DNA of 32,000 nt from Chlamydiales bacterium (GTDB taxonomy: Bacteria > Chlamydiota > Chlamydiia > Chlamydiales > SM23-39): NCBI GenBank assembly GCA_965261025.1, contig OZ253438.1, forward strand, positions 1,170,001 through 1,202,000, given 5' to 3'. Shown here piece by piece: positions 1-27,524 of the stretch. How positions within the stretch are numbered: position 1 is the stretch's first letter; each line of letters opens with the position of its first letter. The translations under genes and the position numbers were made by a program. The notes beneath the pieces were generated by a model that was not told where the DNA came from, made no database searches, and saw nothing but the letters and a program-made list of their open reading frames with translations.

Positions 1-309
1 GTTCGTCCCTTTTTGAAAGTAGCTAGTGCAGTAGAGCTACCCTTTGAAGATAGGAGTTTTGATTTAGTAATTTCCATAAATACGATCCATAATTTAGAGA
101 GATTCGATTTACAAAGGGCTCTTAAAGAAATCCAAAGGGTTTCTAAGAAGGGAGCTTTTATTACGGTAGATGCTTATCGAAATGAAAAGGAAAAAGAGCT
201 GATGTATAGTTGGAATTTGACGGCAAAAACCATTTTACATGTGGAAGAGTGGAAAGAGCTTTTTGCCCAGTGCAGCTACACCGGTGACTACTATTGGTTC
301 ATGCCTTAA
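1..309 (+). CDS. Class I SAM-dependent methyltransferase (type-11-like), 3' fragment; the 5' end lies upstream of the window
   Basis: Frame 1 is open from base 1 to TAA 307-309. The translated tail (..ELPFEDRSFDLVISINTIHNL..KGAFITVDAY..) looks like the post-motif-I half of a Methyltransf_11 fold. It lies 100 nt upstream of the next gene on the same strand. Confidence 0.65.
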   Translation, partial: VRPFLKVASAVELPFEDRSFDLVISINTIHNLERFDLQRALKEIQRVSKKGAFITVDAYRNEKEKELMYSWNLTAKTILHVEEWKELFAQCSYTGDYYWFMP

Positions 310-411
310 AATCCTTCAAAAAAACGATTGCTTCACAAAAGTAGGTGTTGCTATCATCCCGGTTTTCCTGGTTAGAAGAATTTTTGTTTTTCGAATAGAT
401 ATATTGAGTGA

Positions 412-1674
412 GTGGATTATAAACCAAAAAAGTGGAACGAATCTGTGCTAAAAACAGCAAAAAAGAAGATAGAAAAAGCTCCTTTGATTGAGAAGAAGCC
501 CTGTTGTAGCGTTTGCTTGGATTCAGGTTTCTTACAAGAGCTTCTTGTTTTTCCGGAGCTTCCCTTTACAGGGATTTATGTTCCTTTAGAAGAAAGGGAG
601 GAGTCTTGTTTCTCTCAAGGGTTGGATCAGGGATTTTCTTTTTGTCCTCGTTGTTGTCATGGACAGCTGACTAATGTGGTAGATCCTTTTGTAGTTTATA
701 ATCAGTCCTATACTCATAGGGGCTCTAAAAGTGTTATTGCAACAGGAGGAAACCAGTTTTTTGCCCAATTTATAGAAAAAGTTTTTCCTCGCAGAACCTT
801 TCGGGGAGTTGTAGATATTGGCTGTAATGATGGTTTTTTGTTAAGACAGCTTGAAGAAAAGGCGGAACATCTTTTAGGGATTGATCCTATCTGGGGAAAT
901 AGAGAAGTAAAATTAACAGAAAAAATTCGTCTTTTGGGAGGGTTTGTACAAGAGGTAGATATTGTAAAATCACTGGGGAAACCTCTTGATTTAGTTATAT
1001 CTGCGCACACTTTTGAGCATGTAGAGAATCCAAAACAAGTTTTAGAGTCTATTGCAAAAAAGGTGGAAGTGGGTACGGTTTTAGTCATAGAAGTTCCCAG
1101 TTTGGATACACTTTTGAGAAACCATCGTTTTGATCAGATATTTCACCAACACATACAATATTTTTCTTGCAGATCGATCTCTACTTTGATGCAAAGTATA
1201 GGTTTTTCCTATGTTGCCCACGAATTTAATTATTCCATGTGGGGGGGGACTATGCTTTTTGCTTTTGTAAGAAAAGAGCAAAGAGAAGAAAAGCTCCCTG
1301 ATTTTCCAAAATATAGTTTAGAAGAAATCTTTTCTTCTTATGCTACCTTCCAAGATTCCTTAGAGAGGCTTTCAAAAAAGATCGCTTCTTTGGAAAAAGG
1401 AGAGATTTGCGCTTTTGGAGCGGCGCAAATGTTACCAGTTTTAGCGTATCATACTCCTTGCCATTTAGCTGGAATTTCTTCTGTCTACGATGATAATACA
1501 CAAAGGCATTTTCTACGCTATCCGGGATTTTCTTTTACTATACAAAACCCAGGAGGAGTCTCTTTTAGGGATAAGACAGTAGTAATTACTGCTTTAGATA
1601 GCGCTCGTCCTCTTATTGGTAGGTTAAATTCTTTGGGGGCTAAAAGTATACTACTACCACTACAGAACCTATAA
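412..1674 (+). CDS. Zn-ribbon C-methyltransferase of the NDP-sugar C-methyltransferase type (TylCIII-like; Methyltransf_13/14 architecture)
   Basis: N-terminal CxxC..CxxC pair (CSVC ... CPRC). SAM motif I is VVDIGCNDGFLL. The C-terminal domain contains FHQHIQYF and is paralogous to ORF 14981-16180. The start is uncertain: GTG 412, GTG 445 and TTG 484 are all in frame and none has a strong SD. The stop overlaps the next start (TAATG at 1672-1676). Confidence 0.75.
   Translation: MDYKPKKWNESVLKTAKKKIEKAPLIEKKPCCSVCLDSGFLQELLVFPELPFTGIYVPLEEREESCFSQGLDQGFSFCPRCCHGQLTNVVDPFVVYNQSYTHRGSKSVIATGGNQFFAQFIEKVFPRRTFRGVVDIGCNDGFLLRQLEEKAEHLLGIDPIWGNREVKLTEKIRLLGGFVQEVDIVKSLGKPLDLVISAHTFEHVENPKQVLESIAKKVEVGTVLVIEVPSLDTLLRNHRFDQIFHQHIQYFSCRSISTLMQSIGFSYVAHEFNYSMWGGTMLFAFVRKEQREEKLPDFPKYSLEEIFSSYATFQDSLERLSKKIASLEKGEICAFGAAQMLPVLAYHTPCHLAGISSVYDDNTQRHFLRYPGFSFTIQNPGGVSFRDKTVVITALDSARPLIGRLNSLGAKSILLPLQNL
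1241..1248 (+). repeat. Homopolymeric G8 tract inside the C-methyltransferase coding sequence (codons TGG GGG GGG = W-G-G)
   Basis: Read directly: ...ccatgt gggggggg actatg... This is the longest G/C run I found in the window; all other G/C runs are 6 nt or shorter. Confidence 0.95.
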
Positions 1675-2561
1675 TGAAAAAATTAAAAATTGCCATACTA
1701 GGAACGGGGAAGTTAGCTACAGATCTACTGGTAAAAGTGCTTCGCTCTTCCAAGCTTGAATGTGTCATCTTTGTAGGAAGAAACCGAGAGTCTCATGGAA
1801 TCTGTATTGCTAAAGATTTGCAGGTGCCAACCTCTTTTGAAGGAGTAGATTTTTTATTGAAACAGCCCCACTTATATGAACTGGTTTTCGATGTAACCAC
1901 AGCGCAGTCTCATCTTATTCACAACCAGCTTTTGCAGCCTCTTGGAAAACCTATTATAGATCTTACTCCTTGCCGTATTGGGAGTCTCCTTGTTCCCTCT
2001 ATTAATCTATCTTTAGTACATAAGACAAAGAATGTAAATTTAGTAAGTTGTGGTGGACAAACAGCTATCCCTATAATTCACGAGATTGTTTCCAAGGCAG
2101 ATTTGGTAGAATCAATCGAAATTGTTTCCACTATTGCTGCAAAAAGTGCGGGTAGAGGAACTCGTATAAATATTGATGAATATATTACCAAAACCGAAAC
2201 GGCCATTTCCTATTTTTCGGGATGTAAGAAGGTAAAAGCGATACTTATTTTAAATCCCGCCGTTCCCGAAGTGAATATGAAGACTACTCTTTATATGAAG
2301 GGCAAGCATACTGATCTTGATTCGATTCATAAAGCTATTTTATTAGCTGTTGAAAATATGCAGAAATATGTTCCAGGATATCGTTTGAAAGTACCCCCTG
2401 TGATTGACGAAGATGTTTTGACTGTAACTATAGAAGTCGTCGGTAGAGGAGACTACCTCCCTTTTTATGCGGGAAACTTAGATATTATAAATTGTGCAGC
2501 GATTCAGATTGCTGAGGAGTATGCAAATCATGTAACGGGATCGATGGCATGTCATGTATAG
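1674..2561 (+). CDS. Acetaldehyde dehydrogenase (acetylating), DmpF/MhpF family
   Basis: N-terminal Rossmann motif KIAILGTGKLATDLLVK. Catalytic-Cys signature NLVSCGGQTAIPIIHEI. Length of 295 aa is typical of the family. It overlaps the downstream aldolase gene by 13 nt, as DmpF/DmpG pairs do. Confidence 0.85.
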   Translation: MKKLKIAILGTGKLATDLLVKVLRSSKLECVIFVGRNRESHGICIAKDLQVPTSFEGVDFLLKQPHLYELVFDVTTAQSHLIHNQLLQPLGKPIIDLTPCRIGSLLVPSINLSLVHKTKNVNLVSCGGQTAIPIIHEIVSKADLVESIEIVSTIAAKSAGRGTRINIDEYITKTETAISYFSGCKKVKAILILNPAVPEVNMKTTLYMKGKHTDLDSIHKAILLAVENMQKYVPGYRLKVPPVIDEDVLTVTIEVVGRGDYLPFYAGNLDIINCAAIQIAEEYANHVTGSMACHV

Positions 2562-3568
2562 AGATTAGCGATGCTTCTTTAAGAGATGGAAATCATGCTA
2601 TATCCCATCAGCTTCACTTGGAGCATATAGCCCTTTATGCTCTAAAAGCAGATGAGTCTGGTATGTCCTACATTGAGGTAGGACATGGTAATGGTTTAGG
2701 AGCTAGTTCTTTTCAGATTGGGCATGCGCTCCACAGTGATGCAGAAGTTTTACATGCGGCTAGAAAAGCAGTGCAAAGGGGAAAGTTAAGTGTTCATGCA
2801 ATTCCTGGATTTGCCACAATTGATAAAGATATTTTACCTGCTATAGAAAAGGGAGTAGATACTTTTAGAATAGCCTCTCATTGCACGGAAGCGGATACGA
2901 CAGAGACCCAAATATCTTATTTGAAAAAGAGGGATAAGGAGGTTTTTGGAGTGCTCATGATGTCTCATAGGGCTTGTAAAAAGCAATTATTAGAGTCCGC
3001 AAGGTACATGCAAAGCTATGGAGCTTCTGGTGTGATTCTTATGGATTCAGCAGGAGCTTATATTCCGAGTGAGGTAAAAGAGAAGATTTCTTTTTTGGTA
3101 GATCATCTACAGGTTAAGGTGGGATTTCATGCGCATAATAACCTTGGTCTTGCTGTATCTAATTCTATTCTCGCTGTAGAATGTGGAGCCACTATTTTAG
3201 ACGCTACAGCAAGGGGTTTTGGAGCAGGTGCAGGAAATTGTCAGATAGAAATCCTGGTACCTCTTTTAAGCAGGCTAGGATATAGGACAAATATCGATCC
3301 CCATAAAGTTTTAGATCTGGCTGATTTTGCCGAAAAAACTTTTATACCAAGCATTCCTTCTCCTAGAACGCTTAGTATAGCAACCGGTTTGGCAGGCCTA
3401 TTTTCTGGCTTTGCTAAGCCTATAGAGAAGATGTGTGAAAAATATGAAGTAGATCCCAAGAAGGTAATTGAGACGCTAGGTTCTATGAAAGTAGTGGCAG
3501 GGCAGGAAGATGCTATTTTGCAGGCCATAAAAATGGTGATGAGTCATGATACAAGAAAATCTTCTTAA
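2549..3568 (+). CDS. 4-hydroxy-2-oxovalerate aldolase-like (DmpG/MhpE family, HMGL-like TIM barrel)
   Basis: ISDASLRDGNHAISHQ (substrate/metal Asp region) and VGFHAHNNLGLAVSNS (His-x-His metal ligands). 339 aa. Directly paired with the DmpF-like gene. Confidence 0.85.
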   Translation: MSCIEISDASLRDGNHAISHQLHLEHIALYALKADESGMSYIEVGHGNGLGASSFQIGHALHSDAEVLHAARKAVQRGKLSVHAIPGFATIDKDILPAIEKGVDTFRIASHCTEADTTETQISYLKKRDKEVFGVLMMSHRACKKQLLESARYMQSYGASGVILMDSAGAYIPSEVKEKISFLVDHLQVKVGFHAHNNLGLAVSNSILAVECGATILDATARGFGAGAGNCQIEILVPLLSRLGYRTNIDPHKVLDLADFAEKTFIPSIPSPRTLSIATGLAGLFSGFAKPIEKMCEKYEVDPKKVIETLGSMKVVAGQEDAILQAIKMVMSHDTRKSS

Positions 3569-4334
3569 GAAAGCCCTTACTTCAAATCGAGTTGTTTTTG
3601 GGACTTGGTCTGTCTTACACTCTGTTTCTTCTATAGAGGCCTTGGGGGCAACTCCTTTAGATTTTATCCTTTTTGATAGGGAACATGATTCTATTTCTTA
3701 CGAGAAAATTGCTCAGTATACAAGTTTTTGTTTTGCTAGCAGACTTACTCCACTGGTTAGAATTCCTGAAATTTCTCTTAGTGAGGTACAACGCGCGCTT
3801 GATTCGGGAGCGCAAGGGTTGCATGTTCCAAATATTTCAAGGCCTGAGCAAATAGAGAAGCTCTTGGAACTAGCGTTATTTCCTCCTTTGGGTAAAAGAG
3901 GGTTTGCTCCTTTTACTAAGGCTTGTGGGTATCAAAAAGAAAAGGTGTCTTATGTTTTACAAAACACCAATAACCAGCTTTTGCTAGCGGTTCATATAGA
4001 AAACAAAGAAGGAATAGAAAATCTTTCCAAGCTTCTTTCTTATGAATTTATTGATATATTTTTTGTGGGGCTTTTTGATTTAGCAAACTCTTTGGGTCTT
4101 CAGGGGGATATTAGGCATCCGCATTGGGAAGAAATCTTGAAGTCCCTTATAAAACAGATTCAGTCGAAAAATAAAATAGCAGGAACCATTGCTATGAATT
4201 TAGAGCAGGCGGAGTATTTGCTGGGATTGGGATTTCAGTATTTAACGATCTCTTCTGACTGTGATATGCTCTTTAGTTCTTATACAAACTTTTTACAAAA
4301 TGTGGGAAGGGTTTCTTATGGAGTTAAATCTTAA
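3546..4334 (+). CDS. HpcH/HpaI-family (class II, pyruvate-dependent) aldolase
   Basis: VVFGTWSVLHS..IEALGATPLDFILFDREHD and ..VRIP......RALDSGAQGLHVP resemble the HpcH/HpaI aldolase / citrate-lyase beta fold. The ATG at 3546 overlaps the upstream gene by 23 nt. Confidence 0.75.
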   Translation: MIQENLLKKALTSNRVVFGTWSVLHSVSSIEALGATPLDFILFDREHDSISYEKIAQYTSFCFASRLTPLVRIPEISLSEVQRALDSGAQGLHVPNISRPEQIEKLLELALFPPLGKRGFAPFTKACGYQKEKVSYVLQNTNNQLLLAVHIENKEGIENLSKLLSYEFIDIFFVGLFDLANSLGLQGDIRHPHWEEILKSLIKQIQSKNKIAGTIAMNLEQAEYLLGLGFQYLTISSDCDMLFSSYTNFLQNVGRVSYGVKS

Positions 4335-5109
4335 GGGAAAAAAAGCATTGGTTACAGGGGGCTCTAACGGAATTGGCAAGGCCATTGTCAAGGCTTTGGC
4401 TTCGGAAGGGGTCACGGTAGCTTTTACTTCTAGAAAGCAGTACCGAATTGATTCACTTTTATCAGAGATGGAGGAAGAGGGACTTTCTCATTTAGGGGTA
4501 CAGGTGGATATCTCAGAAGAAGCAGGTCCTAGTAGAGTAAAGGCTGTTTTAGAAGAAAAGTTTGGAGAAGTGGACATTCTCGTAAATAATGTAGGAGATA
4601 CTTTATCAATAGTGGATCCTTACTGTTCCTTATCTGATTGGAAAAGGATATACCGGCTAAATCTCGAAGTGCACGTAGAGTTAGTTAATTTATTTCTTCC
4701 TCATATGCTCAAGCAAAGGTGGGGTCGAATTGTAAATATCACGGCAGGCGCTGCTTTAGAAAACAGTGGTCCCGTTCCTTATTGTTCTATGAAGGCGGCG
4801 TATACGGCTTATACAAGATCTATGGCGCGAGTTTTGGCACCAGAAAATGTCGTTATGACAGCGGTGCTTCCTGGTGTTGTGCTTACAGAAGAAGGGCATT
4901 GGCAAAAAGTATTGGAAGACAGACCGAATCATGCAAAAAAGTATTTATCGGAGAGGACTTCTTTGAAAAGATTTGGGCTTCCTGAAGAGATTAGTCCCAT
5001 GGTGGTTTTTCTTTGTTCTGATGCGGCTTCCTTTTGTCAAGGGTCTATTGTTCCTGTAGAAGGAGGACAGGCCCGTCATTATTTTCATGTGCATGGAATA
5101 GGAAATTAA
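4318..5109 (+). CDS. Short-chain dehydrogenase/reductase (classical SDR)
   Basis: The protein starts MELNLKGKKALVTGGSNGIGKAI (TGxxxGIG). It carries NNVG and the YxxxK catalytic motif (YCSMKAAY). I prefer ATG 4318, preceded by GGGAAGGG, over the track's upstream alternative start at 4261. The TAA stop is immediately followed by the next ATG (5107-5112). Confidence 0.85.
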   Translation: MELNLKGKKALVTGGSNGIGKAIVKALASEGVTVAFTSRKQYRIDSLLSEMEEEGLSHLGVQVDISEEAGPSRVKAVLEEKFGEVDILVNNVGDTLSIVDPYCSLSDWKRIYRLNLEVHVELVNLFLPHMLKQRWGRIVNITAGAALENSGPVPYCSMKAAYTAYTRSMARVLAPENVVMTAVLPGVVLTEEGHWQKVLEDRPNHAKKYLSERTSLKRFGLPEEISPMVVFLCSDAASFCQGSIVPVEGGQARHYFHVHGIGN

Positions 5110-6870
5110 ATGAAGGCAACAGACTATATTGCCTCTGTTTTACGAAAAAAGGGTATTTCAGCAGTTTTTGGAGTAACTGGGGGTGCAGTCGTACATCTTT
5201 TTGATTCTGCAAAGAAGGAGGGATTAGAATGCGTGTTTACCCATCACGAACAGTCGGGAGCTTTTGCAGCAGGGGCTTTTGCTAGGCTCCAGGGATTAGG
5301 AGCTTTATTTTGTACTACAGGACCTGGAGGGACAAACGCTCTTACAGGGATAGCGGCGGCTTGGCTTGACTCCGTTCCCTTAATCTGCTTAGGGGGACAG
5401 GTAAGATTGTCTCACATGAAACCAAAAAATATTCGGCAGCAAGGAGCACAAGAGCTGGATATAGTCTCTTTGATGAAGCCCATTACAAAATCAGCACAAA
5501 CGGTAAAGAGTTTAGCTCTTTTACCTAAGATGTTAGAAGAGTCTATTGAAATAGCTACCTCAAAAAGACCGGGACCCGTTTATCTAGAAATACCCCTGGA
5601 TTTACAGTGGCAATCCATTACTTTACCAGAGGCTTCTTTACAGAAAGACTTTCCGGAAGTAGCTTTAGAAGAAGAAAAAATGAAGCAAATTTTTCAGCGG
5701 TTTAACCAGGCTAAAAAACCTCTTGTTTTGATAGGGCATGGTGTAAGACTAGCTAAGGCTAAATATCTTATAAGAGCTTTTTTGGATAAGAGCGAAGTTC
5801 CTCATATCACTACGTGGAATGCGGTAGATCTGGTAGAGGGAACGTCCCCTTTGTATCTGGGTTGTCCTGGGATGTTTGGCACTAGAGAAGCCAATTTAGC
5901 GGTACAGACTTGCGACTTTCTTCTTTGTATAGGGACGCATTTACCTATTCCTATTACAACAGGTTTATTTCATAAGTTTGCTACTTCTGCTGAGATTGCT
6001 ATGATCAATATTGATGACAAGGAGCTTTCCTCGCAAAGGGTAGAGATAAAGCATAAACTACTCATGGATGCTAGGGTTTTTTTAGAAAAGGCTCTTCCTG
6101 TTATTCAGCCTGTAAAAAATTGGTCTTGGAAAAGCTCCTGCTGTAGGATTCGGCAGCTTTTTTCTTCGAGCTTTTTACCGAAAAAGGAAAAAGGTTTTAT
6201 GGATGCTTATCAAGCGGTAAGAATCATCAACAGCTTTTTGGATAAAGATACTATTGTGGTTATAGATGGGGGAGGCACTATTGTACAGATTGGAATGCAA
6301 ACGCTTATTGCTAAAGAGAATCAACGAATTATAATTGATGCGGGACTTTGTTCTATGGGATCAGGGCTTCCTCATGTTATTGGCTCTTGTAAAGCAAGGC
6401 CTGATGCAAAGGTATTTTGTCTTGTGGGAGAAGGCAGTCTTATGTTTAATTTACAAGAACTTCAGACTCTCTCTGATCACAAGATGAATGTAGTAGTGTT
6501 CGTTTTCAATAATGAAGGATATCTTTCTATAAAACATACCCAGGAGAGTTTTTTAAAAGGAGTTTACTTAGGCTCTAGCAAAGAGGGAGGGATTTCTACG
6601 CCAGATCTCAAAAAGTTGGCTTCTTCTTTTTGCATTCGATATTCGCTGGCTGCGGAGGAAGAGACGTTTTCTGAGCAGCTCTCCATTATAAAAAAAGAAA
6701 AAGGCCCTCACTTATGTGAAGTTCGAATTTCTAAAGAGCAGTCTATTTCTCCAAAAATCGGATTTTCAAAAAATCAAGACGGGACAGCCTCTCAAAATCC
6801 CATAGATAAGATGGAGCCCTTCATCTTTGAAAAAGAAACAAGAGAATTCTTAGTAAATATAAAGACCTGA
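5110..6870 (+). CDS. Thiamine-diphosphate-dependent enzyme, acetolactate-synthase large-subunit / YerE-like carboligase
   Basis: HHEQSGAFAAGAFARL carries the catalytic Glu. TTGPGGTNALTGIAAAWLDSVPLICLGGQ is also present. The ThDP motif reads GEGSLMFN..(24 aa)..NNEGY, i.e. GEG instead of the canonical GDG. 586 aa. Confidence 0.85.
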   Translation: MKATDYIASVLRKKGISAVFGVTGGAVVHLFDSAKKEGLECVFTHHEQSGAFAAGAFARLQGLGALFCTTGPGGTNALTGIAAAWLDSVPLICLGGQVRLSHMKPKNIRQQGAQELDIVSLMKPITKSAQTVKSLALLPKMLEESIEIATSKRPGPVYLEIPLDLQWQSITLPEASLQKDFPEVALEEEKMKQIFQRFNQAKKPLVLIGHGVRLAKAKYLIRAFLDKSEVPHITTWNAVDLVEGTSPLYLGCPGMFGTREANLAVQTCDFLLCIGTHLPIPITTGLFHKFATSAEIAMINIDDKELSSQRVEIKHKLLMDARVFLEKALPVIQPVKNWSWKSSCCRIRQLFSSSFLPKKEKGFMDAYQAVRIINSFLDKDTIVVIDGGGTIVQIGMQTLIAKENQRIIIDAGLCSMGSGLPHVIGSCKARPDAKVFCLVGEGSLMFNLQELQTLSDHKMNVVVFVFNNEGYLSIKHTQESFLKGVYLGSSKEGGISTPDLKKLASSFCIRYSLAAEEETFSEQLSIIKKEKGPHLCEVRISKEQSISPKIGFSKNQDGTASQNPIDKMEPFIFEKETREFLVNIKT

Positions 6871-7729
6871 AGAATCTCCTTCCCCGGGAGATTATTCCTC
6901 CTAGAATGAGGAAGATAAGGGTTTTGGGGGATTTTTTTTGCCAAAATAGGGTATAAATAAATTCTTTTCTCAGCTCTTTCAAAATAGAGTAAGAGAGCAT
7001 CTTTTTTCTCACGTCAAGATAAGCGGGAGTTTGTAGGGATTCTAATATATAAAGACAGGGTTTTTTTCGGTCATTTTTAGGATGAGAAAGATTTTCATCG
7101 TGCAAACGCTTATGAGCCAACACCGCTTTTATAAAAACAAAACCATGTCTCAAGGCAATCACATGGGAAAAAAACCAATCGCAAAGAGGTCCTGTATTTT
7201 TTTGAACTCCTCCTGCTTGGAGAACATAACTTCTTTTGTAGATGCTAGTATGTCCTAAAAATGTGTGATTTTCTTGCTTAAATTTTGCCACTTCCTCTCT
7301 AGGGTAGAATTGGGAGGGGAAAGACGTTTGTTCATTGCATTTTTCTCCTTCTTTTTTTTTGTGAAAATAAAAAGGTTCAGAACAAGCAAACCCCGCTTCG
7401 GGGTGTGCTTTTAAAGAGGAGAGAGTAATTTCAATAAAATTTGGTAAAATGAAGTCATCGGAACAGGCAAAATAAATGTATTCTCCTTTTGCCCTATGTA
7501 GCCCCCTATTAGCGCTTTCATAAGCTCCTCGTCTCTTCTCGTTTTTGATAAAAATAATCTGAGGAAAGTTTCTTACGTAACTTTCTATAATATCGCGGCT
7601 ATTATCCGTAGAGGCATCATCGATAAGGATAAGTTCGTCAGGAAATTTTGTTTGTTGAGCAAATCCTTCCAAAGCAGATTCAATATAACGTCCAAAATTG
7701 TAATTGCACATAACTACAGAAAGACGCAT
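6821..7729 (-). CDS. Family 2 glycosyltransferase (GT-A fold)
   Basis: MRLSVVMCNYNFGRYIESAL..LILIDDASTDNS.. and a DxD-like CSDDF motif. ATG 7729 is preferred over the track's 7777 because GT2 proteins normally begin right at the 'SV(V/I)..YN' strand. The 3' end overlaps the convergent ThDP gene by 50 nt. Confidence 0.8.
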   Translation of the reverse strand: MRLSVVMCNYNFGRYIESALEGFAQQTKFPDELILIDDASTDNSRDIIESYVRNFPQIIFIKNEKRRGAYESANRGLHRAKGEYIYFACSDDFILPNFIEITLSSLKAHPEAGFACSEPFYFHKKKEGEKCNEQTSFPSQFYPREEVAKFKQENHTFLGHTSIYKRSYVLQAGGVQKNTGPLCDWFFSHVIALRHGFVFIKAVLAHKRLHDENLSHPKNDRKKPCLYILESLQTPAYLDVRKKMLSYSILKELRKEFIYTLFWQKKSPKTLIFLILGGIISRGRRFFRSLYLLRILLFLFQR

Positions 7730-7921
7730 TGAGGTTCCAAAAGGTTTTTTTGTATACAAGATACCTTGCGTAGGCATTTTTAAAAAATAAGAACAAAAAG
7801 AAAGTCTTCTAACTTTAGTTGTACAGAAAAGAAGATCTTCGTGTTAGACTCCGAGGTAGTTTTTACATACAAGTTAAGCTGCAGCTAAATATAGCCCAGA
7901 GGATAGTTTAGGTATTTTGAT
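7730..7921. promoter_or_regulatory. Divergent intergenic region that must hold promoters for the GT2 (minus) and Zn-ADH (plus) genes
   Basis: Back-to-back start codons. The only candidate element I see is a weak TTTACA (7862-7867) - N18 - TAAATA (7886-7891). I could make no confident -35/-10 assignment by eye. Confidence 0.3.
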
Positions 7922-10896: not shown

Positions 10897-10959
10897 GGTT
10901 TTCTTTGTCTTTTTGCTTCTTTACCCTTTAGCAAAAAGAAAAAATAAAAAGAAGAGGTT

Positions 10960-19397: not shown

Positions 19398-20200
19398 GAA
19401 AACCCTATAGAAATTTGGGACAGTTTTTCTCCATAAAGAGCAAAGCTGGTCTTCTCAATATGGTACAATTTTTTCTCGATACTTAGTTCATTTAAGTATC
19501 TATAAACTCCGGGATAATTGGGATCATAATCATGCCAAAGGATAACTCCTTGCAGTGAGAGTTTTTCCAGGACTTTTTGGGTATCCCTTTTTACATTTTC
19601 ATAGGAATGAGAACCGTCAATAAAGCAAAAGTCGATAGCTCCTTTTTTACAAAAAAGGGAAAAATCATATTCTGCGGAATCTCCTAAGTGCTGCACTACT
19701 TTGTGTTCCATGGGAGTGTTTTGGTATTTCCTTTGTTGTTTTTGTAGATCTGTTACAAATTTTACTTCCCTTCTTAAGATAGGAGCGCTTGTTTTTTCTC
19801 CAGAAGAAGGGAGATCAATGGTGTGCACTACGGCTTTTTTTGACGTATTTAAAGCTAGCTGTAAAGTAGTGTTACCGTCAAAGGTGCCTATTTCTACCGA
19901 GTTTGTAGGGTTTAAGGTTTTTACAACAGAGGCGAGTACAAGAAGCTCTAAGTAAGATACGTTACCATCTCGCGTATCACAGTTAAGTAAGGAAATTTCT
20001 CCTGCCTGACGGATCAATTTTTCTGGGGATATTTTTTGTAGTTTGCACGACTTATAAGCTCCGGCAGCATACAAAGAGGTAATGCTGGGTTTTAAGATGG
20101 GTTTAAGGAGCCTGGGATATCGGATAGCAAAAAAAAGGGCTTTTAAGACTCTAGATATTTTGTGAAACTTTTCTGTTTTTATTTTCAAAGTCTCAGACAT
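19394..20200 (-). CDS. Class I SAM-dependent methyltransferase (Methyltransf_24 / TylF-CmcI-like)
   Basis: NSVEIGTFDGNTTLQLA (motif I) and FCFIDGSHSYENVKRD..GVILWHDY. ATG 20200 is preceded by GGAGAGGA and is preferred over the track's TTG at 20281. ATGA overlap with the LhgO-like gene at 19394-19397. Confidence 0.7.
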   Translation of the reverse strand: MSETLKIKTEKFHKISRVLKALFFAIRYPRLLKPILKPSITSLYAAGAYKSCKLQKISPEKLIRQAGEISLLNCDTRDGNVSYLELLVLASVVKTLNPTNSVEIGTFDGNTTLQLALNTSKKAVVHTIDLPSSGEKTSAPILRREVKFVTDLQKQQRKYQNTPMEHKVVQHLGDSAEYDFSLFCKKGAIDFCFIDGSHSYENVKRDTQKVLEKLSLQGVILWHDYDPNYPGVYRYLNELSIEKKLYHIEKTSFALYGEKLSQISIGFS

Positions 20201-20371
20201 AAGTCCTCTCCATATAAGAGTGTTAAAACAGGGGAAGGGTAGGTTATGAACCTTTTTTTGTAAAGAGCAGCCCTCTTTCAAAAAATCCTTTATTCTTTGG
20301 GAAAAATAATTTCCCCTATTTAGTATAAGTGTCCATATTGAATATATTCTGGAAGGCTAAATGGATTTTTT
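20201..20371. promoter_or_regulatory. Divergent intergenic region (methyltransferase/LhgO-like operon on minus, GT4-GT4-FkbM operon on plus)
   Basis: Back-to-back starts in AT-rich sequence. It contains a perfect short inverted repeat, GGGAAA-aataa-TTTCCC, at 20299-20315. Promoter elements were not confidently assignable. Confidence 0.3.
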
Positions 20372-21457
20372 ATGAAAAAATTATGTGTTGATGCCAGAAT
20401 GCTTTTTTCTTCTGGAATCGGAACGTATTTAAGAAATATTCTTCAGGGGCTCCAAAAAGAAAAGCAGTTTACCATCTCTGTAATTGTTCCGGAAAAATTT
20501 GCGCAGGAGAAGGAGATAGCCCCTTTTTCCAAGATCTTTTGTAAAGCACCTATTTATTCGATAGAAGAGCAGCTAGCTCTACCTTTTTTTATTCCCTCTT
20601 GCGATCTTTTTTGGTCTCCTCATTTTAATGTTCCTTTAGCAAAAATTCGGGCTAAAAGACGGATAGTAACCCTTTGCGATATCTACTTTTTCATGCATCA
20701 AAAAAATCTTTCCTGGTTGAAAAAAAAGTATGCGCAGATTTTTTATCAAAAAGCCATAGATGCTTCTGAAAGAGTCATTACCATTTCTTCCTTTTCTGAA
20801 AGAGAGATTAGGGAAAATCTAAAAAGGACGGAGCAAAAAATAGTAACGATTCCGTTGGGAGTAGAGAGACAAGACTTTGTAGAAGGAGAGAAAAAAAGAA
20901 AGCTTCCCTCTTCTTTTTTCTTGTATGTGGGAAATCTAAAACCGAATAAAAATTTGGAGAGACTTTTTAGGGCCTTTTCCAAGCTTTCTTCTGAGAATCC
21001 TTCCCTTTCTTTAGCGGTAATTTCTAGGAGTAAAAAGCAGGAAAGAGAGAAAATTATACGAGAAGCGTTTTCTGGAGAAAAGCTTCCTTCTTCTATCATT
21101 TTTTTTGAAGATGTCTCCAATAAAGAGCTTCCTTTTTTTTATAAAGAAGCAATCTCTTTAGTATTTCCTTCTCTTTATGAAGGATTTGGGCTTCCTCCTT
21201 TAGAGGCTATGATTGCAGAGTGTCCTGTTTTAGCTTCCAATATAGAAGTGATTCAAGAAGTTTGTAAATCTTCAGTTCTCTATTTTGATCCTTATCAAGA
21301 GGGGGAGATATACCAGAGAATGAAACAGGTCTTAGAGGATACACAAATGAGAGAAGAGCTTCGAGAAAAAGGCAAAATCTATGCAAAAAATCTCTCTTGG
21401 GAGAAAACTATAAAGAGTCATGTCACTCTGTTTGAGGAGATTTTGGAGAAGGTATGA
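20372..21457 (+). CDS. Family 4 (GT-B, group 1) glycosyltransferase
   Basis: C-terminal EX7E region is PSLYEGFGLPPLEAMIAECPVLAS. 361 aa. Confidence 0.85.
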   Translation: MKKLCVDARMLFSSGIGTYLRNILQGLQKEKQFTISVIVPEKFAQEKEIAPFSKIFCKAPIYSIEEQLALPFFIPSCDLFWSPHFNVPLAKIRAKRRIVTLCDIYFFMHQKNLSWLKKKYAQIFYQKAIDASERVITISSFSEREIRENLKRTEQKIVTIPLGVERQDFVEGEKKRKLPSSFFLYVGNLKPNKNLERLFRAFSKLSSENPSLSLAVISRSKKQEREKIIREAFSGEKLPSSIIFFEDVSNKELPFFYKEAISLVFPSLYEGFGLPPLEAMIAECPVLASNIEVIQEVCKSSVLYFDPYQEGEIYQRMKQVLEDTQMREELREKGKIYAKNLSWEKTIKSHVTLFEEILEKV

Positions 21458-22587
21458 AAACAGCTTTAGTCCATGATTGGCTAACGTGTTTAGCGGGAGC
21501 AGAAAAAGCGCTTCAGTCTTTATATACACTTTATCCTTCTCCTATTTATACTTTGTTAGCGGATTTTTCCTCTTTAAAAGGGTCTTTTTTTGAGAGAAAA
21601 GAAATTCATACCTCCTTCATTCAAAGACTTCCTTTTGCCAAGAAAAAATATCGAAGCTATCTTCCCTTTTTTCCTTTAGCCATAGAGCAGCTGGATGTTT
21701 CCTCTTATGATCTAGTTCTTTCTTCTTCTCACTGTGCTGCTAAAGGGGTTTTAACCCACGCAGAGCAGCTACACATTTGTTACTGTCATACCCCTGTTCG
21801 GTATGCTTGGGATATGTATCATGAGTATTTATCTATGGGAAATCTAAAAAAAGGAGGAAAGGGGCTTTTAGCAAAGATTTTTCTCCACTACTTTCGTAGC
21901 TGGGATAAACTCTCCGCTAGTAGAGTAGATTATTTTTTAGCTAATTCCCACTTTATAGCAAAAAGGATCGAAAAGGTTTACGGGAGAAAGGCGGAGGTAG
22001 TATTTTTTCCTGTGAATACGAAATTTTTTACCTTTTGCGACAAAAAAGAGGACTTTTACTTAGCGGTTTCAAGACTGGTCCCTTATAAAAAAATGGATGT
22101 AATAGTTCGGGCTTTTCACAATATGCCTGAGAAAAAGCTTATAGTCATCGGAGATGGGCCTGAGCTTTCAAGACTAGAGAAAATGAAATCTTCTAATGTA
22201 TCTTTTATGGGATATCAAAAAGATGAAGTGGTAAGAAGTTATATGCAAAAAGCAAAAGCGTTTTTATATGCTGCCTTAGAAGATGCAGGAGTCGTTCCCG
22301 TAGAAGCCATGAGTTGCGGAACTCCTGTTATTGCTTACGGAAAAGGAGGCATTTTAGATAGCGTAATACCAAAAGTTACAGGGCTTTTTTTCCTAGAACA
22401 AACTCCAAAGGCTTTAGAAGAGGCTATTGAGGCTTTTGAGAAAAGGAGTTTTGATCTAGAAAAAATAAGAGAGCATGCAGAAAATTTTTCTAAGGAAAAC
22501 TTTGAAAAAAGGCTCTATAATAGTATCGAAACAAAAAAAGTAAACTTCTTTACTCCAGGGAAAAGCCATCATGGGTTCCTTTTCTAA
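21454..22587 (+). CDS. Family 4 (GT-B, group 1) glycosyltransferase
   Basis: N-terminus is MKTALVHDWLTCLAGAEKAL, and AALEDAGVVPVEAMSCGTPVIAYGKGG is the EX7E region. 4-nt overlap with the upstream GT4 gene. Confidence 0.85.
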   Translation: MKTALVHDWLTCLAGAEKALQSLYTLYPSPIYTLLADFSSLKGSFFERKEIHTSFIQRLPFAKKKYRSYLPFFPLAIEQLDVSSYDLVLSSSHCAAKGVLTHAEQLHICYCHTPVRYAWDMYHEYLSMGNLKKGGKGLLAKIFLHYFRSWDKLSASRVDYFLANSHFIAKRIEKVYGRKAEVVFFPVNTKFFTFCDKKEDFYLAVSRLVPYKKMDVIVRAFHNMPEKKLIVIGDGPELSRLEKMKSSNVSFMGYQKDEVVRSYMQKAKAFLYAALEDAGVVPVEAMSCGTPVIAYGKGGILDSVIPKVTGLFFLEQTPKALEEAIEAFEKRSFDLEKIREHAENFSKENFEKRLYNSIETKKVNFFTPGKSHHGFLF

Positions 22588-23341
22588 GTATGCTATTCAA
22601 AGGATTGTTCCTCCTTTTTTGTACCGCTTTTTATCTAAGGTAAGACTTCCTGAAGAAGGGCTTGATTTTACGAAATTTTTGCTAGCAAAATATGCAGTAA
22701 GAAGAGGAGGAAGTCTTATCGATGGTGGAGCCCATATAGGGTTTTATTCCAGGTGTTATGCCCAACTTTTAAAGAAAAAACCGGGTCGTCTTTTTTCTTT
22801 TGAACCGAACCCTTATCTTTTTCCTCTTTTGCAAAAGACTAGAGTTCTTCCCAAAGAAAAACATTTTTTTTTCCAAAAAGCTCTGTGTAAGACAAGTGGA
22901 GAAAAAAAAGCTTTTTTTGTGCGCCCCTTTTCTTTGGCAGAAGATAGCTCTTTAAAGCGCCCTTTAGAAAAAAAAGCCTTTAAAAGAATCGAAGTAGAAA
23001 GTTTTTGTCTGGATGATCTTTACAAGAGATATGAACTGAAAGATTGTAAGTTGGTAAAACTGGATGTAGAAGAAAACGAAGCTCTTGTTTTTGAGGGAGC
23101 TGCTCTTTTTTTACAAGAAGTTTCACCTTGGATAATCTTCGAATATACTCAAGAAGAAAAAAAAGAAAATCGTACTCTGCATATTTTGCAAGAAGGGGGA
23201 TACGTTTTTTTTGATTTACAGACCTTTGAGAAGGTAAGCTCTTCTTATAAAAGCCTATTAACAGATTTAGTAGCTGTTGCAAGGAAAGACGAGGAGGAGC
23301 TAAAAAATGTCCTAAGGTCTATTGAGTTCTTAACCGTTTAG
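22571..23341 (+). CDS. FkbM-family SAM-dependent methyltransferase
   Basis: LIDGGAHIGFYS (the FkbM 'DxGAxxG' motif), SFEPNP and VKLDVEENE. Overlaps the upstream GT4 gene by 17 nt. Confidence 0.7.
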   Translation: MGSFSKYAIQRIVPPFLYRFLSKVRLPEEGLDFTKFLLAKYAVRRGGSLIDGGAHIGFYSRCYAQLLKKKPGRLFSFEPNPYLFPLLQKTRVLPKEKHFFFQKALCKTSGEKKAFFVRPFSLAEDSSLKRPLEKKAFKRIEVESFCLDDLYKRYELKDCKLVKLDVEENEALVFEGAALFLQEVSPWIIFEYTQEEKKENRTLHILQEGGYVFFDLQTFEKVSSSYKSLLTDLVAVARKDEEELKNVLRSIEFLTV

Positions 23342-23368
23342 ACTTGCAGCAAAGGGATTTTCGAGGCT

Positions 23369-23989
23369 CTATTCTAAGCGAGAAAAGTTAGGTTTTTGAT
23401 GCTCGTATTGAATAAAATGATAAATTCTAAGGGCAGCTGTAAGCAAAACTAGGGAGCTAAACAGGAGCGTTATCAAAGGGAAAATACCCGGAAAAAGGAT
23501 CATTAAAGAGAAAAATAAAAACGCTTCTGCTCTTTCAATTAGGCCTGAGCTATAATGAAAACTTTTTTGGCCTGTATTTTCTGTAAAAATACCTACAACA
23601 AGAAATGAAGTAACGCAAATTAAGATGGAACCTAGCATAAGTAGGGAGTAGATTCCTCTGGTTTCAGGATGAAATAAAAAAAGAGCTAAAATCACAGAAA
23701 ATTCTACCACACGGTCGCTTATAATATCCAAAGCACTTCCCAAAGGAGAAGACTGGTTTTTTAGTCTTGCCAAAGTTCCATCTAGGGTATCTAAATAGCC
23801 AGAAAATAAAAGACAGATCAAACTTTTCCAGATCGATCCGGTGCTTATGGGTATTGCACTGAGAATTCCGATGAAACAGCTTGCCATAGTAAGATGAGAG
23901 GGAGATAGAAAAGACCAATTTTTTATTTGTTTTGCAAGGGGATCTACCAATAGAGATTGGTAAGGGCCTCGGAAGTATTTTTCTAGCAT
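23369..23989 (-). CDS. CDP-alcohol phosphatidyltransferase family protein
   Basis: Exact family signature D-x2-D-G-x2-A-R-x8-G-x3-D-x3-D in DTLDGTLARLKNQSSPLGSALDIISDRV. Multi-pass membrane protein of 206 aa. Its ATG overlaps the stop of the upstream fusion gene (ATGCTAG at 23983-23989). Confidence 0.85.
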   Translation of the reverse strand: MLEKYFRGPYQSLLVDPLAKQIKNWSFLSPSHLTMASCFIGILSAIPISTGSIWKSLICLLFSGYLDTLDGTLARLKNQSSPLGSALDIISDRVVEFSVILALFLFHPETRGIYSLLMLGSILICVTSFLVVGIFTENTGQKSFHYSSGLIERAEAFLFFSLMILFPGIFPLITLLFSSLVLLTAALRIYHFIQYEHQKPNFSRLE

Positions 23990-26118: not shown

Positions 26119-26177
26119 ATGTTTTTCTCACAGAACTGGGTTTATAAGGGATATATAGTTAGAGCGCTAGGAAAATA

Positions 26178-27524
26178 TCAAGAAGTTTTTATAAGGGTAG
26201 TTTCTAAAGAACCCTCCGTGCTTTTGAATATCGCTTGATTTTTCAAACAAAGTCCTAAGCAGAGTGCCGTATGAACCCAAAGGTAGTTTCGGAAAATATT
26301 TTGATTAAATTGAAGAACGCATAAGGAGATTAGAAGAGAAAGAAATAAAGCGATGATTCTATTTCTTTCTTGGAGGGGAAGTAGAGGATTTTCCACCGTT
26401 TTTTTGAAGACGTAATAAAGCGATAACCCCAGTAGGATAAAACCGAAAAAACCAAAAAGACCCAGACTTGCTAAAATCTCGGTAAGGACGTTGGTGGGAT
26501 CATAGGGAAGAACTTCTTCTAAAGTAACTTCTTGTAAGAAGGCTTGTTTTAAAAGTATTTCTTGATATAGATAAGGCCCAACTCCTCCTAATCCTACTCC
26601 TAAAAAGGGGTTTTCTAAAAAGACTTTCCAGGCGTTTACGATACCTTCCCATCGGGTGGAAAAACAACCATGGGAAGAGAAGTTTTTATTAAAGAATTTG
26701 AAAAAAGTGTCCGAGAAAATATGGGGAAAAAAAAACCAAAAAGAGCCAAAAATAAAGAACAAAAATCCAGAAAATAGGAGGAGTTTTTTTCGTAAAAAAC
26801 CGATGTATTTTTTCAAAAAAGTAAAAGAGCTAAAAAAAAGAGAGAGGCCGAGTAAAACAAAGTAAGCAAAAAATCCGCCTGTAGAAGTAGAGATTATAAG
26901 GAAAAGATTGATAAGAAAAAGCAGGAGAAAATTTTTCATAGAGAAGAAAGGCTTTTTTTCAAGCAGGAAGAAAAGGTTATGAAACATGACAAAAGAACCC
27001 ATATACAGAGCGTAAAAAGAAGGTTCATAGGTCCAAGCGTGGGGCCTGGCAAATTTTCCTAAAAATTGAGAGAGAAAGGGATCATATATTCCAAAAATAG
27101 AAAGAAAGAGTTGTAAAAAAGCATGCATTCCTACCAAAAGAAAGGAGAAAAAATAGATTCTGATAACTCTTTTTTCTTCTCCCTTCAAGACAAAGAGAAG
27201 GGGAAGGAGAAAGTAGCTTACGAATTGAAAACAATAAATACAAAAGTAGCCTAAAGAACGTAGAGGAAGAGGGCTAAAGAAGGAGGAGACAAAAAGGGAG
27301 AAAAAAATCCAAAGGGAAGCCATCCAAACAGGTTTAGGAAGAGAATACTGACGCAGCAAAGGGAAAAAAAGCAGCGTTAAAAATAAAGAGAAAAGATGGG
27401 TAGCTTTCAAGCGAAAAAAAACGAGTGTAATATAGAGCTTATCGGCAGAGAGGGTTACAAAGTAGATGAATAAAAAAAGGTAAGGAAGAGAAGGGGCTAT
27501 CCTATAAAGCTTTTTAGAAAACAT
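26178..27524 (-). CDS. O-antigen ligase / polymerase-like membrane protein (Wzy_C domain family)
   Basis: About 10-12 TM segments, very Phe/Leu-rich. The loop STRWEGIVNAWKVFLENPFLGVGLGGVGPY matches the Wzy_C/WaaL pattern (R..W......I...P..G.G.G). Its ATG (27522-27524) directly abuts the topA stop (TAG at 27525-27527). Confidence 0.7.
   Translation of the reverse strand: MFSKKLYRIAPSLPYLFLFIYFVTLSADKLYITLVFFRLKATHLFSLFLTLLFFPLLRQYSLPKPVWMASLWIFFSLFVSSFFSPLPLRSLGYFCIYCFQFVSYFLLPLLFVLKGEEKRVIRIYFFSFLLVGMHAFLQLFLSIFGIYDPFLSQFLGKFARPHAWTYEPSFYALYMGSFVMFHNLFFLLEKKPFFSMKNFLLLFLINLFLIISTSTGGFFAYFVLLGLSLFFSSFTFLKKYIGFLRKKLLLFSGFLFFIFGSFWFFFPHIFSDTFFKFFNKNFSSHGCFSTRWEGIVNAWKVFLENPFLGVGLGGVGPYLYQEILLKQAFLQEVTLEEVLPYDPTNVLTEILASLGLFGFFGFILLGLSLYYVFKKTVENPLLPLQERNRIIALFLSLLISLCVLQFNQNIFRNYLWVHTALCLGLCLKNQAIFKSTEGSLETTLIKTS

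Follow-up and report, generated by a model that had tools for sequence, protein, structure and literature searches.

A 32,000-nucleotide stretch of the genome of a Chlamydiales bacterium (assembly GCA_965261025.1, contig OZ253438.1, positions 1,170,001 to 1,202,000; hereafter the window, with positions counted from its first letter) carries a glycan biosynthesis locus directly beside the topoisomerase I gene topA. This region is probably a chromosomal island for a lipopolysaccharide (LPS) glycan of the O-antigen or outer-core type, built from an ancestral core and three sugar modules. The core, common to many Chlamydiota, would comprise Gmd (a GDP-mannose 4,6-dehydratase), two family 4 glycosyltransferases (GT4), one of them WbaZ-like, and a WaaL-like membrane protein, whereas the modules would furnish an oxidized heptose, a C-methylated 6-deoxyhexose, and a sugar bearing an acyl-derived branch. 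[quoted passage not shown] Gene families, one predicted fold, synteny, and co-occurrence form the observed basis of this reading, from which the substrates, the sequence of reactions, the lipid carrier, and the final acceptor are deduced.

The window holds 30 substantial open reading frames (ORFs), whose families were called by Pfam and NCBIfam profile scans (Table 1). A first-pass annotation, made from the sequence alone, had described a heavily methylated glycan locus, and its inventory is sustained in every item by these scans: five S-adenosylmethionine (SAM) methyltransferases (g01, g02, g17, g21, and g24), two of which (g02 and g17) are zinc-ribbon C-methyltransferases; one GT2 (g08) and two GT4 glycosyltransferases (g22 and g23); a Wzy_C protein resembling O-antigen ligases (g27); and Gmd, above its equivalog cut-off, together with an Fcl-like enzyme (g19 and g18). 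Its attribution to the Chlamydiota, drawn from the fusion of TopA to a SWIB domain, is likewise borne out, the best TopA matches being chlamydial metagenome-assembled genomes (MAGs). The nearest genome by TopA is the uncultured MAG GCA_964351495 (87% identity). The remaining close matches share 57-65% identity, and those with names are mostly Rhabdochlamydiaceae, Simkaniaceae, Parachlamydiales, and Anoxychlamydiales; a few MAGs within the 57-87% range are titled otherwise (Verrucomicrobia, Halobacteriovoraceae, "uncultured bacterium"), and clearly non-chlamydial TopA sequences reach at most 52%. To judge from these identities, the host is an environmental chlamydia outside the Chlamydiaceae.

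Gene order and content are nearly the same in the closest relative (locus L082), at amino acid identities of 56-87%, which argues that the clustering is conserved rather than fortuitous; the ten window proteins checked are all singletons at 90% identity. The GC content is even across the window (0.33-0.42) and a scan for tRNA genes returned none, such that neither a compositional island signature nor a tRNA gene signals recent transfer within it. The left edge cuts through the locus, with the reading frame of g01 still open at position 1. The sequence beyond was judged from the relative with 87% TopA identity, where the locus continues with a full-length methyltransferase, an epimerase, a pair of E1-like alpha and beta subunits, an HldE-like kinase/nucleotidyltransferase, and a GmhA-like SIS protein. 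The locus in the window is thus truncated and not "complete-looking," as it had first been described.

The case for an ancestral core comes from a survey of topA neighborhoods covering 56 chlamydial loci, with 43 species-level loci having at least 8 kb of downstream sequence. Of these 43 loci, 20 have an orthologue of the WbaZ-like glycosyltransferase g23 (GT4b; threshold E < 1e-90) at a distance of 1.2-6.2 kb on the downstream side of topA, and GT4b is the best-conserved component of the core linked to topA. Orthologues of g22 (GT4a) adjoin GT4b in L005, L013, L020, L039, L048, L089, and L090. Between topA and GT4b there usually stand a polytopic protein of 390-450 amino acids and a ManC-type guanylyltransferase. 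The polytopic protein belongs to Pfam Wzy_C in L017 (Simkania), L019 (Neptunochlamydia), L022, and L039, matches Wzy_C under the cut-off in L013, matches O-ag_pol_Wzy in L005 and, under the cut-off, in L020, and has no Pfam match in L018. A WaaL-like gene accompanies the GT4 core in the window, its closest relative, L008, L048, L089, and L090. In L089 and L090 the orthologous core of Gmd, GT4a, GT4b, ManC, the WaaL-like protein, and topA is followed by an export gene at the distal end, namely, a Wzx-type flippase (Polysacc_synt_3) in L089 and Wzm (ABC2_membrane) in L090.

These distributions bear on what the first-pass annotation had considered an unusual envelope feature for the lineage. Given a GT4b orthologue beside topA in nearly half of the loci and Wzy_C proteins in Simkania and Neptunochlamydia, the feature is not a lineage oddity when set against environmental Chlamydiota, and public annotation already uses the name "O-antigen ligase family protein [Chlamydiae...]". 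In a comparison of synteny across Chlamydiota, which had been proposed as a check, the insertions g25 and g26 are specific to this lineage, and the core of Gmd, GT4a, GT4b, and a WaaL-like protein recurs beside topA. The contrast drawn with the Chlamydiaceae was nonetheless fair. Textbook chlamydial LPS is rough and Kdo-only, and constitutes the genus antigen; and among the listed homologues of g27 (120 of 139), none is named Chlamydia or Chlamydophila. Literature searches on chlamydial O-antigen and O-antigen ligase returned no description of such topA-linked loci, and the main chlamydial pangenome paper makes no mention of LPS, O-antigen, or glycosyltransferases.

The candidate ligase g27 is a membrane protein with at least 10 hydrophobic segments, in keeping with a polytopic protein of about 12 transmembrane segments. 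A sequence search of the PDB with g27 gave no match. Its AlphaFold (AF2) model, computed with 45 homologues, is all-helical and of high confidence (predicted local distance difference test, pLDDT, 92.8; predicted template-modeling score, pTM, 0.91), and the sole Foldseek match in the PDB at E ≤ 1e-3 is the O-antigen ligase WaaL (7TPG_B; E = 8.4e-5; template-modeling (TM) scores 0.57/0.62), followed by FtsW at E = 0.014. In the alignment of the 45 homologues, R160, R291, and R412 never vary, and H285 and H418 hardly do (g27 numbering). The family has 139 members in a search of 5.8 billion proteins, and among the 120 listed, the named homologues are all chlamydial entries titled "O-antigen ligase family protein." The genomic setting points in the same direction. 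The Kdo hydroxylase gene kdoO (g30) stands two genes from topA; its orthologue in the relative (70% identity) is followed by rpoN and a GT9 gene, L089 has KdoO, rpoN, and a GT9 heptosyltransferase-family gene as well, and L013 has a weaker KdoO homologue (31%). KdoO suggests a Ko-containing inner core in this host, and the modeled fold and the LPS-core context, KdoO here and GT9 in relatives, together favor a ligase role for g27.

Two other roles for a Wzy_C protein have to be weighed against ligation. The locus could be a self-contained polymer-type O-antigen or capsule locus, with g27 acting as a Wzy-type polymerase or the capsule remaining unlinked to lipid A. This reading draws on the occurrence of the Wzy_C domain in polymerases and ligases alike, on the O-ag_pol_Wzy match of the L005 protein at the equivalent position, and on the Wzx-type flippase of L089, which is typical of Wzy-dependent pathways. 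We nevertheless consider it unlikely, as the window has neither Wzz nor a second Wzy_C or Wzy protein, just three glycosyltransferases, and a locus that is incomplete within its bounds, while the sole significant structural match of g27 is WaaL and the neighbors are LPS-core genes. A role in protein O-glycosylation, with g27 as a PglL/PilO-type O-oligosaccharyltransferase acting on envelope proteins, would accord with the departure of g27 from the strict WaaL motif. PglL-type enzymes also carry a Wzy_C domain, which fits them as well as it fits WaaL, and sequence alone cannot separate the two. Yet g27 has no match to the PglL-specific Pfam family, its best structural match is WaaL, and KdoO and GT9 core genes flank the locus, rendering this role quite improbable.

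The question of export leads to a third alternative. Since the locus runs off the left edge and relatives carry Wzx or Wzm distally, the export genes likely lie outside the window, and the unexplained export route noted in the first-pass annotation is most likely a boundary artifact. Besides L089 and L090, an ABC half-transporter resembling HepA, MsbA, and PglK adjoins the branched-sugar cassette in both L083 and L085, while L088 has Wzm/Wzt. Conversely, the sugars could be added directly to lipid A-Kdo in the cytoplasm, as in a lipooligosaccharide (LOS), and flipped by MsbA, with g27 serving some other purpose. The scarcity of glycosyltransferases, the want of an initiating transferase or flippase in the window, and the HepA/MsbA-like exporters of L083 and L085 could all be so explained. 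Against such a route stand the WaaL-like gene kept beside the GT4 core in the six loci named above, the other Wzy_C proteins at the same position in L017, L019, L022, and L039, and the Wzx of L089 and Wzm of L090, and we regard it as decidedly doubtful.

If a WaaL-ligated glycan is indeed made, the window specifies some uncommon components for it. In the putative heptose module, the HddA-like kinase g16 and the HddC-like guanylyltransferase g15 would generate GDP-heptose. The closest PDB relatives of g16 (3K85, 4USK/4UT4, and 4N3O; 118-128 bits) were deposited as a heptose-phosphate kinase, a "putative sugar kinase," and a putative heptose 7-phosphate kinase. The third member, g14, aligns over residues 3-310 with residues 4-311 of PDB 6VO6, at an identity of about 60% read by eye from the alignment rather than computed; we take 6VO6 to be Cj1427 of Campylobacter jejuni. 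Hence, of the kinase, nucleotidyltransferase, and epimerase proposed in the first-pass annotation, all three genes are present, but the "epimerase" is better read as a candidate GDP-heptose C4-dehydrogenase. Cj1427 acts by a ping-pong mechanism, converting GDP-D-glycero-α-D-manno-heptose into its 4-keto form with α-ketoglutarate as the oxidant, which becomes L-2-hydroxyglutarate (PMC10680097), and g14 would carry out the same C4 oxidation at the same expense.

An L-2-hydroxyglutarate oxidase would otherwise be out of place in a glycan locus, hence the proposal that the LhgO-type enzyme g20 recycles the product of g14. Three chlamydial genomes contain g20 together with g14 orthologues, and L048 has a run of LhgO, GMER-like, Cj1427-like, and HddC-like genes. 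From this co-localization and the known chemistry, we infer that g20 regenerates α-ketoglutarate for g14 by oxidizing L-2-hydroxyglutarate. An LhgO-type cofactor-recycling partner is not known to us for Cj1427, nor is an L-2-hydroxyglutarate oxidase known to us from the C. jejuni heptose pathway. Neither the isomerase GmhA nor the phosphatase GmhB is encoded in the window; in L082 and L085 a GmhA-like SIS gene stands just past the site matching the left edge of the window, where GmhA and HldE genes flank the locus. Genes of the heptose module also lie beside topA in L018 and L048.

The C-methyl module consists of three contiguous genes on one strand, g17-g18-g19, which provide the enzyme set of a pathway to a GDP-6-deoxy-3-C-methylhexose of the virenose type. 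Gmd would form the 4-keto sugar, the TylC3-type enzyme g17 would methylate it at C3, and the GMER-like g18 would complete the sugar. The PDB relatives of g17 are D-mycarose 3-C-methyltransferase (4RV9; 249 bits) and TcaB9 (183 bits), and the best match of g18 is GMER of Escherichia coli (1BWS; 99 bits), with the Ser/Cys, Tyr/Lys, and His catalytic positions conserved in the alignment. The g18 homologue of L048 occurs beside the Cj1427-like gene without Gmd, a position suggesting that reduction of the 4-keto-heptose may be a further task of g18, or its task instead. As for the decorating enzymes, g21, which has an orthologue of 63% identity in the closest relative, probably O-methylates a sugar, and FkbM genes akin to g24 are also found in L089 and L090.

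The third module is the most distinctive. The side chains of erwiniose, caryophyllose, and gastriose are made by an aldolase that yields a 4-hydroxy-2-oxo acid, a YerE-like thiamine diphosphate (ThDP)-dependent enzyme, and a reductase (PMC9306805). By analogy, the acetaldehyde dehydrogenase/aldolase pair g03-g04 (DmpF/DmpG) and the HpcH-type aldolase g05 would supply 4-hydroxy-2-oxo acids, which g07 would decarboxylate and add to a 4-keto sugar nucleotide. The short-chain dehydrogenase/reductase (SDR) g06, whose true start probably lies downstream of the annotated one, would reduce the new carbonyl; the C-methyltransferase-like g02, the small methyltransferase g01, and the zinc alcohol dehydrogenase g09 would finish the branched sugar, which the GT2 enzyme g08 presumably transfers. 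The best PDB match of g07, 8RPH, is confirmed to be JanthE, a YerE-like carboligase that accepts ketones. Further matches are 5AHK (253 bits), which we take to be YerE of Pseudomonas protegens, and acetolactate synthase (ALS) I of E. coli (237 bits), and g07 scores under every ALS equivalog cut-off in NCBIfam. The g02 protein matches TcaB9 over residues 30-291 (E = 7e-19, TcaB9/TylC3-type) and shares 24% identity with g17, the zinc-ribbon cysteines being aligned. The first-pass annotation had not listed the six-gene module at 1674-6870 and 7922-8986.

Conservation argues that these genes belong together. At least four chlamydial genomes keep a cassette of six genes (C-methyltransferase-like, DmpF, DmpG, HpcH, SDR, and ThDP enzyme) together. 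Besides the window, it was seen in L082, on the topA contig; L083, which shares a contig with the topA locus L015 but lies some 80 kb from topA; and L085, whose linkage to topA is not shown. The g02 orthologues in L083 and L085 match Pfam Methyltransf_13, the g08 orthologue adjoins the cassette in L082 and L085, and the g01 orthologue is full length (219 amino acids) in L082. In more distant settings the catalytic core of g01, g02, g06, g07, and g09 recurs in a Methanospirillum locus (L087), and orthologues of g01, g07, and g09 stand beside other SDR and methyltransferase genes in a JGI metagenome contig (L088). The g01 and g09 orthologues in both lie beside the ThDP enzyme, those of g09 scoring 346-368 bits, and the SDR adjoins the ThDP enzyme in L087 and in every chlamydial locus examined. 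In place of the aldolases, L087 and L088 carry either a GD_AH-family dehydratase plus a TAL_FSA aldolase or else an HMGL-like protein, all candidate keto-acid formers; this swap is the pattern predicted by a scheme in which the donor varies. That genes 1674-6870 serve ordinary metabolism, such as the lower meta-cleavage pathway or an acetoin or branched-chain amino acid route, is hardly credible: DmpF and DmpG do pass the equivalog cut-offs of catabolic enzymes, and g07 and g06 resemble ALS and butanediol dehydrogenase, but g07 is closest to a YerE-like enzyme and under all ALS cut-offs, an ALS small subunit, an acetolactate decarboxylase, and a hydratase are all missing, the companions of the cassette in the chlamydial loci examined are C-methyltransferase, GT2, heptose, and Wzy_C genes, its genes keep company with a C-methyltransferase-like gene in L087 and with GT2 and HldE-like genes in L088, and the same gene set has been assigned to erwiniose and caryophyllose synthesis (PMC9306805).

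Two side observations concern this cassette. A pair of pyruvate dehydrogenase E1- or transketolase-like alpha and beta subunits accompanies the YerE-like enzyme in L082 (1560-3586), L087 (1331-3113), and L088 (1845-3902). By analogy to the E1-type enzymes of antibiotic sugar pathways, this pair suggests a second ThDP-dependent, two-carbon branching step and, with the HldE-like and epimerase genes, would extend the cassette into a wider conserved "supermodule." Separately, an insertion sequence element (rve integrase with helix-turn-helix domains) lies directly upstream of the six-gene cassette in L083 (3099-4205), a hint that the cassette moves as a unit.

The acceptor of the branching reaction follows by elimination. 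Because genes for a CDP-3,6-dideoxyhexose are not in the window, the acceptor would have to be a GDP-linked 4-keto sugar; as the only sources of 4-keto sugars encoded here are Gmd and g14, it would be GDP-6-deoxyhexos-4-ulose or GDP-heptos-4-ulose.

Several observations nevertheless weigh against the island as we read it. The host is uncultured and known from its genes alone. Within the window's 30 ORFs, Pfam and NCBIfam scans found no initiating transferase (WecA/WbaP), Wzx, Wzm/Wzt, or Wzz, in agreement with the first-pass annotation, and no polymerase. The likeness of g27 to 7TPG is modest (TM-score about 0.6, 14% identity), and the strict WaaL motif H[NSQ]x9Gxx[GTY] is missing, its nearest counterpart being H285-x8-G294-x2-N. 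For the sugar modules, the HddA, HddC, and Fcl models are matched under their NCBIfam cut-offs, and our equation of 6VO6 with Cj1427 is provisional. The same scans of the window found no DdhA-D genes for CDP-4-keto-3,6-dideoxy-D-glucose, the acceptor in the known branched-sugar pathways, nor any glucose-1-phosphate cytidylyltransferase, CDP-glucose dehydratase, or E1/E3. Lastly, the ThDP motif of g07 reads GEG...NN (E441, codon GAA at 6430-6432), as opposed to GDG in all 86 homologues with a match to the motif, the 61% relative among them (GDG...NN). This variant might impair cofactor binding, although the substitution is conservative; it is explicable by a single base change, and functional variation, sequencing error, and early decay are all conceivable origins.

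Taken jointly, these elements invite a broader and more tentative proposal, possible though on balance doubtful. In environmental Chlamydiota, a hypervariable locus anchored at topA would ancestrally have directed the synthesis of an O-antigen or outer core ligated by WaaL, and the rough LPS of the Chlamydiaceae would be a derived loss; the lineage in the window would make an undescribed derivative of GDP-heptose or GDP-6-deoxyhexose with a ThDP-installed polyhydroxyalkyl branch and C- and O-methyl groups; and LhgO would close the α-ketoglutarate cycle of a Cj1427-type ping-pong dehydrogenase. If true, a widespread WaaL-centered locus would change our picture of the ancestral chlamydial envelope and bear on how environmental chlamydiae meet their amoebal and animal hosts. 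With topA as an anchor, the diversity of surface glycans can be typed readily across chlamydial MAGs. Furthermore, the locus predicts acyl-branched sugars beyond proteobacteria and mycobacteria, built on a GDP-linked acceptor, and suggests, in a form open to testing, how cells might dispose of the L-2-hydroxyglutarate that Cj1427-type dehydrogenases release.

Table 1. Features of the window, with positions, strand, and the family or structural match behind each assignment.
Gene	Assignment	Position	Strand	Match
g01	SAM methyltransferase (Methyltransf_11), C-terminal part of a protein of ~219 amino acids	1-309	+	Pfam; cut by window edge
g02	Divergent sugar C-methyltransferase-like protein with N-terminal CxxC...CxxC zinc ribbon; opens the conserved cassette	412-1674	+	
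g03	Acetylating acetaldehyde dehydrogenase (DmpF/BphJ/ErwJ type)	1674-2561	+	TIGR03215, 342 bits (cut-off 282)
g04	4-Hydroxy-2-oxovalerate (pyruvate) aldolase (DmpG/BphI/ErwI type)	2549-3568	+	TIGR03217, 324 bits (cut-off 286); DmpG_comm domain
g05	HpcH/HpaI-family class II pyruvate aldolase	3546-4334	+	Pfam HpcH_HpaI, 69 bits
g06	Classical SDR, candidate acyl-branch carbonyl reductase (YerF/ErwF role)	4261-5109	+	adh_short, 144 bits
g07	YerE/ErwE-like ThDP-dependent carboligase, 586 amino acids	5110-6870	+	Best PDB match JanthE 8RPH, 340 bits
g08	GT2 glycosyltransferase	6821-7777	-	Glycos_transf_2, 98 bits
g09	Zinc-type alcohol dehydrogenase	7922-8986	+	ADH_N and ADH_zinc_N domains
	Interruption: major facilitator superfamily (MFS; Tet-like) transporter, five-transmembrane-segment protein of 192 amino acids, uracil-DNA glycosylase (ung)	9676-12231	-	No glycan-related family match
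g14	SDR, GDP-heptose C4-dehydrogenase candidate (earlier "epimerase")	12228-13163	-	PDB 6VO6/6VO8, 410 bits
g15	Sugar-1-phosphate guanylyltransferase, HddC-like	13148-13867	-	Best NCBIfam HddC, 151 bits (cut-off 300)
g16	GHMP sugar kinase, HddA/WcbL-like heptose-phosphate kinase	13864-14868	-	NCBIfam HddA, 135 bits (cut-off 600)
g17	Nucleoside-diphosphate-4-keto-sugar 3-C-methyltransferase (TylC3/TcaB9 family)	14981-16180	+	Methyltransf_13 and Methyltransf_14
g18	GMER (Fcl)-like 4-keto-sugar epimerase/reductase	16177-17124	+	NCBIfam Fcl, 134 bits (cut-off 500)
g19	Gmd, a GDP-mannose 4,6-dehydratase	17149-18189	+	TIGR01472, 496 bits (equivalog cut-off 415)
g20	L-2-Hydroxyglutarate oxidase (LhgO-type flavin adenine dinucleotide enzyme)	18186-19397	-	NF008726, 467 bits (cut-off 299)
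g21	Methyltransf_24 methyltransferase	19394-20281	-	Pfam, 57.8 bits
g22	GT4a glycosyltransferase, conserved chlamydial core	20372-21457	+	Glycos_transf_1
g23	GT4b, WbaZ-like (mannosyl)transferase	21454-22587	+	Best PDB match WbaZ-1 mannosyltransferase
g24	FkbM-family methyltransferase	22571-23341	+	TIGR01444, 67.6 bits (cut-off 37.7)
g25	CDP-alcohol phosphatidyltransferase (phosphatidylinositol phosphate synthase-like)	23369-23989	-	Archaetidylinositol/phosphatidylinositol phosphate synthases, 62-78 bits, under cut-offs
g26	Pyridine-nucleotide-disulfide oxidoreductase fused to C-terminal DedA/VTT domain, 711 amino acids	23983-26118	-	
g27	Wzy_C-family polytopic membrane protein, candidate O-antigen ligase	26178-27524	-	Pfam Wzy_C, 46 bits (cut-off 31.7)
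g28	TopA-SWIB, anchor and lineage marker	27525-30068	-	NF004966 "topoisomerase I/SWI fusion", 1308 bits (cut-off 868)
	Protein of 280 amino acids	30148-30990	+	No Pfam or NCBIfam match
g30	Kdo hydroxylase KdoO	31005-31961	+	Pfam Kdo_hydroxy, 281 bits; NCBIfam, 204 bits (cut-off 300)

The remaining genes have no settled place in this scheme. Both g25 and g26 are missing from the relative's locus, where a DUF952 gene stands instead, and from all the other loci, g26 being absent from all 80 topA loci; they are lineage-specific insertions whose membership in the pathway is uncertain. The g25 enzyme would imply inositol phospholipid synthesis in a chlamydia. A glycolipid resembling phosphatidylinositol mannosides, made by g25 and GT4 mannosyltransferases, was considered and rejected, with g25 scoring under all cut-offs and absent from related loci. 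The flavoprotein part of g26 resembles dihydrolipoamide dehydrogenase and mercuric reductase; the fusion ties a redox enzyme to a putative undecaprenyl-phosphate flippase, and the gene lies directly beside g27. The suggestion that this DedA fusion supplies the export route was also rejected, since DedA proteins flip and recycle undecaprenyl phosphate (C55-P; PMC11474028, PMC12893004) and the gene is syntenic in no relative. The MFS transporter as a flippase fared no better: it is Tet-like and conserved with ung as a housekeeping block, the trio of MFS, 192-amino-acid protein, and ung occupying the same place in L082. On the other side of topA is the 280-amino-acid protein; most chlamydial loci have a homologue of it (E 1e-16 to 1e-94) no more than a few kb from topA, and it appears to be a lineage-specific conserved topA neighbor. 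In L089 (13927-18095) and L090 (19085-21207), its place and that of KdoO are taken by GT6 and paired Gly_transf_sug genes (TcdA/TcdB-like glucosyltransferase fold), and both topA flanks appear to be glycan-variable in the phylum.

Each of the three modules has a known counterpart, and nothing in the window is categorically new. What appears new is the combination and its setting, namely, a topA-anchored variable O-antigen-type locus across environmental Chlamydiota, a putative acyl-branched-sugar cassette with a GDP-linked acceptor in that phylum, and the apparent pairing of LhgO with a Cj1427-type enzyme. For the cassette, the closest parallels are the Erw cluster of P. atrosepticum and the MMAR cluster of M. 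marinum, in which ErwI/ErwJ form a BphI/BphJ-type aldolase/dehydrogenase pair, ErwE and MMAR_2332 are ThDP carboligases, ErwF is a reductase, and MMAR_2331, of the aldolase/citrate-lyase family, is required for caryophyllose (PMC9306805). The genes g03-g07 share this logic of dehydrogenase and aldolases, ThDP carboligase, and candidate NAD(P)H reductase, ErwE, YerE, MMAR_2332, and ErwF being compared with the window by published description. The cluster of R. palustris CGA009 adds a SAM methyltransferase (PMC9306805); as in that cluster, the window pairs a SAM methyltransferase with a presumably dedicated glycosyltransferase, and the setting is a glycan locus of the LPS/LOS kind. The known acceptor of Erw/Yer enzymes is CDP-4-keto-3,6-dideoxyglucose. 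Unlike the Erw and MMAR clusters, the window lacks the CDP-glucose/DdhA-D genes, holds both aldolase systems together, includes a TcaB9-like C-methyltransferase and a zinc alcohol dehydrogenase as fixed cassette members, and resides in a chlamydial host.

For the capsular heptose pathway of C. jejuni (PMC10680097), the window has candidate counterparts of the kinase HddA and the guanylyltransferase HddC together with the 6VO6 homologue, GmhA is nearby in relatives, and the GMER-like SDR g18 could play the part of the reductase Cj1428. In contrast, no cupin-type epimerase resembling Cj1430 was seen in the window, and an L-2-hydroxyglutarate oxidase sits within the chlamydial loci; the 4-keto-heptose may here be diverted to C-methylation or acyl branching. 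The C-methyl module mirrors a GDP-virenose scheme proposed in silico for phase I Coxiella burnetii, which comprises the GMD CBU_0689, the TylCIII-like CBU_0691, and the GMER CBU_0688 (PMC3539893). The same three families form the operon-like run g17-g18-g19 inside an O-antigen region, and both hosts are obligate intracellular bacteria.

With respect to ligation, g27 parallels WaaL (7TPG) as a Wzy_C protein of WaaL-like fold beside glycosyltransferases and LPS-core genes, and relatives pair their g27-like protein with Wzx, Wzm, or an ABC half-transporter; the WecA/Wzk/WaaL route of Helicobacter pylori is a related ligation system. The nearest kin, however, are other chlamydial topA loci (among them L005, L008, L013, L017-L020, L022, L023, L039, L048, L089, and L090), which share the orthologous core of topA, a Wzy-type membrane protein, GT4b, GT4a, and Gmd. 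They usually add ManC, FkbM, and GT2 genes, whereas the window has no adjacent ManC, bears the insertion of the DedA fusion and the CDP-alcohol transferase, and extends for more than 27 kb through three modules. Under the broader proposal set out above, such a topA-anchored variable locus would be the chlamydial analogue of the galF-gnd O-antigen locus of enterobacteria.

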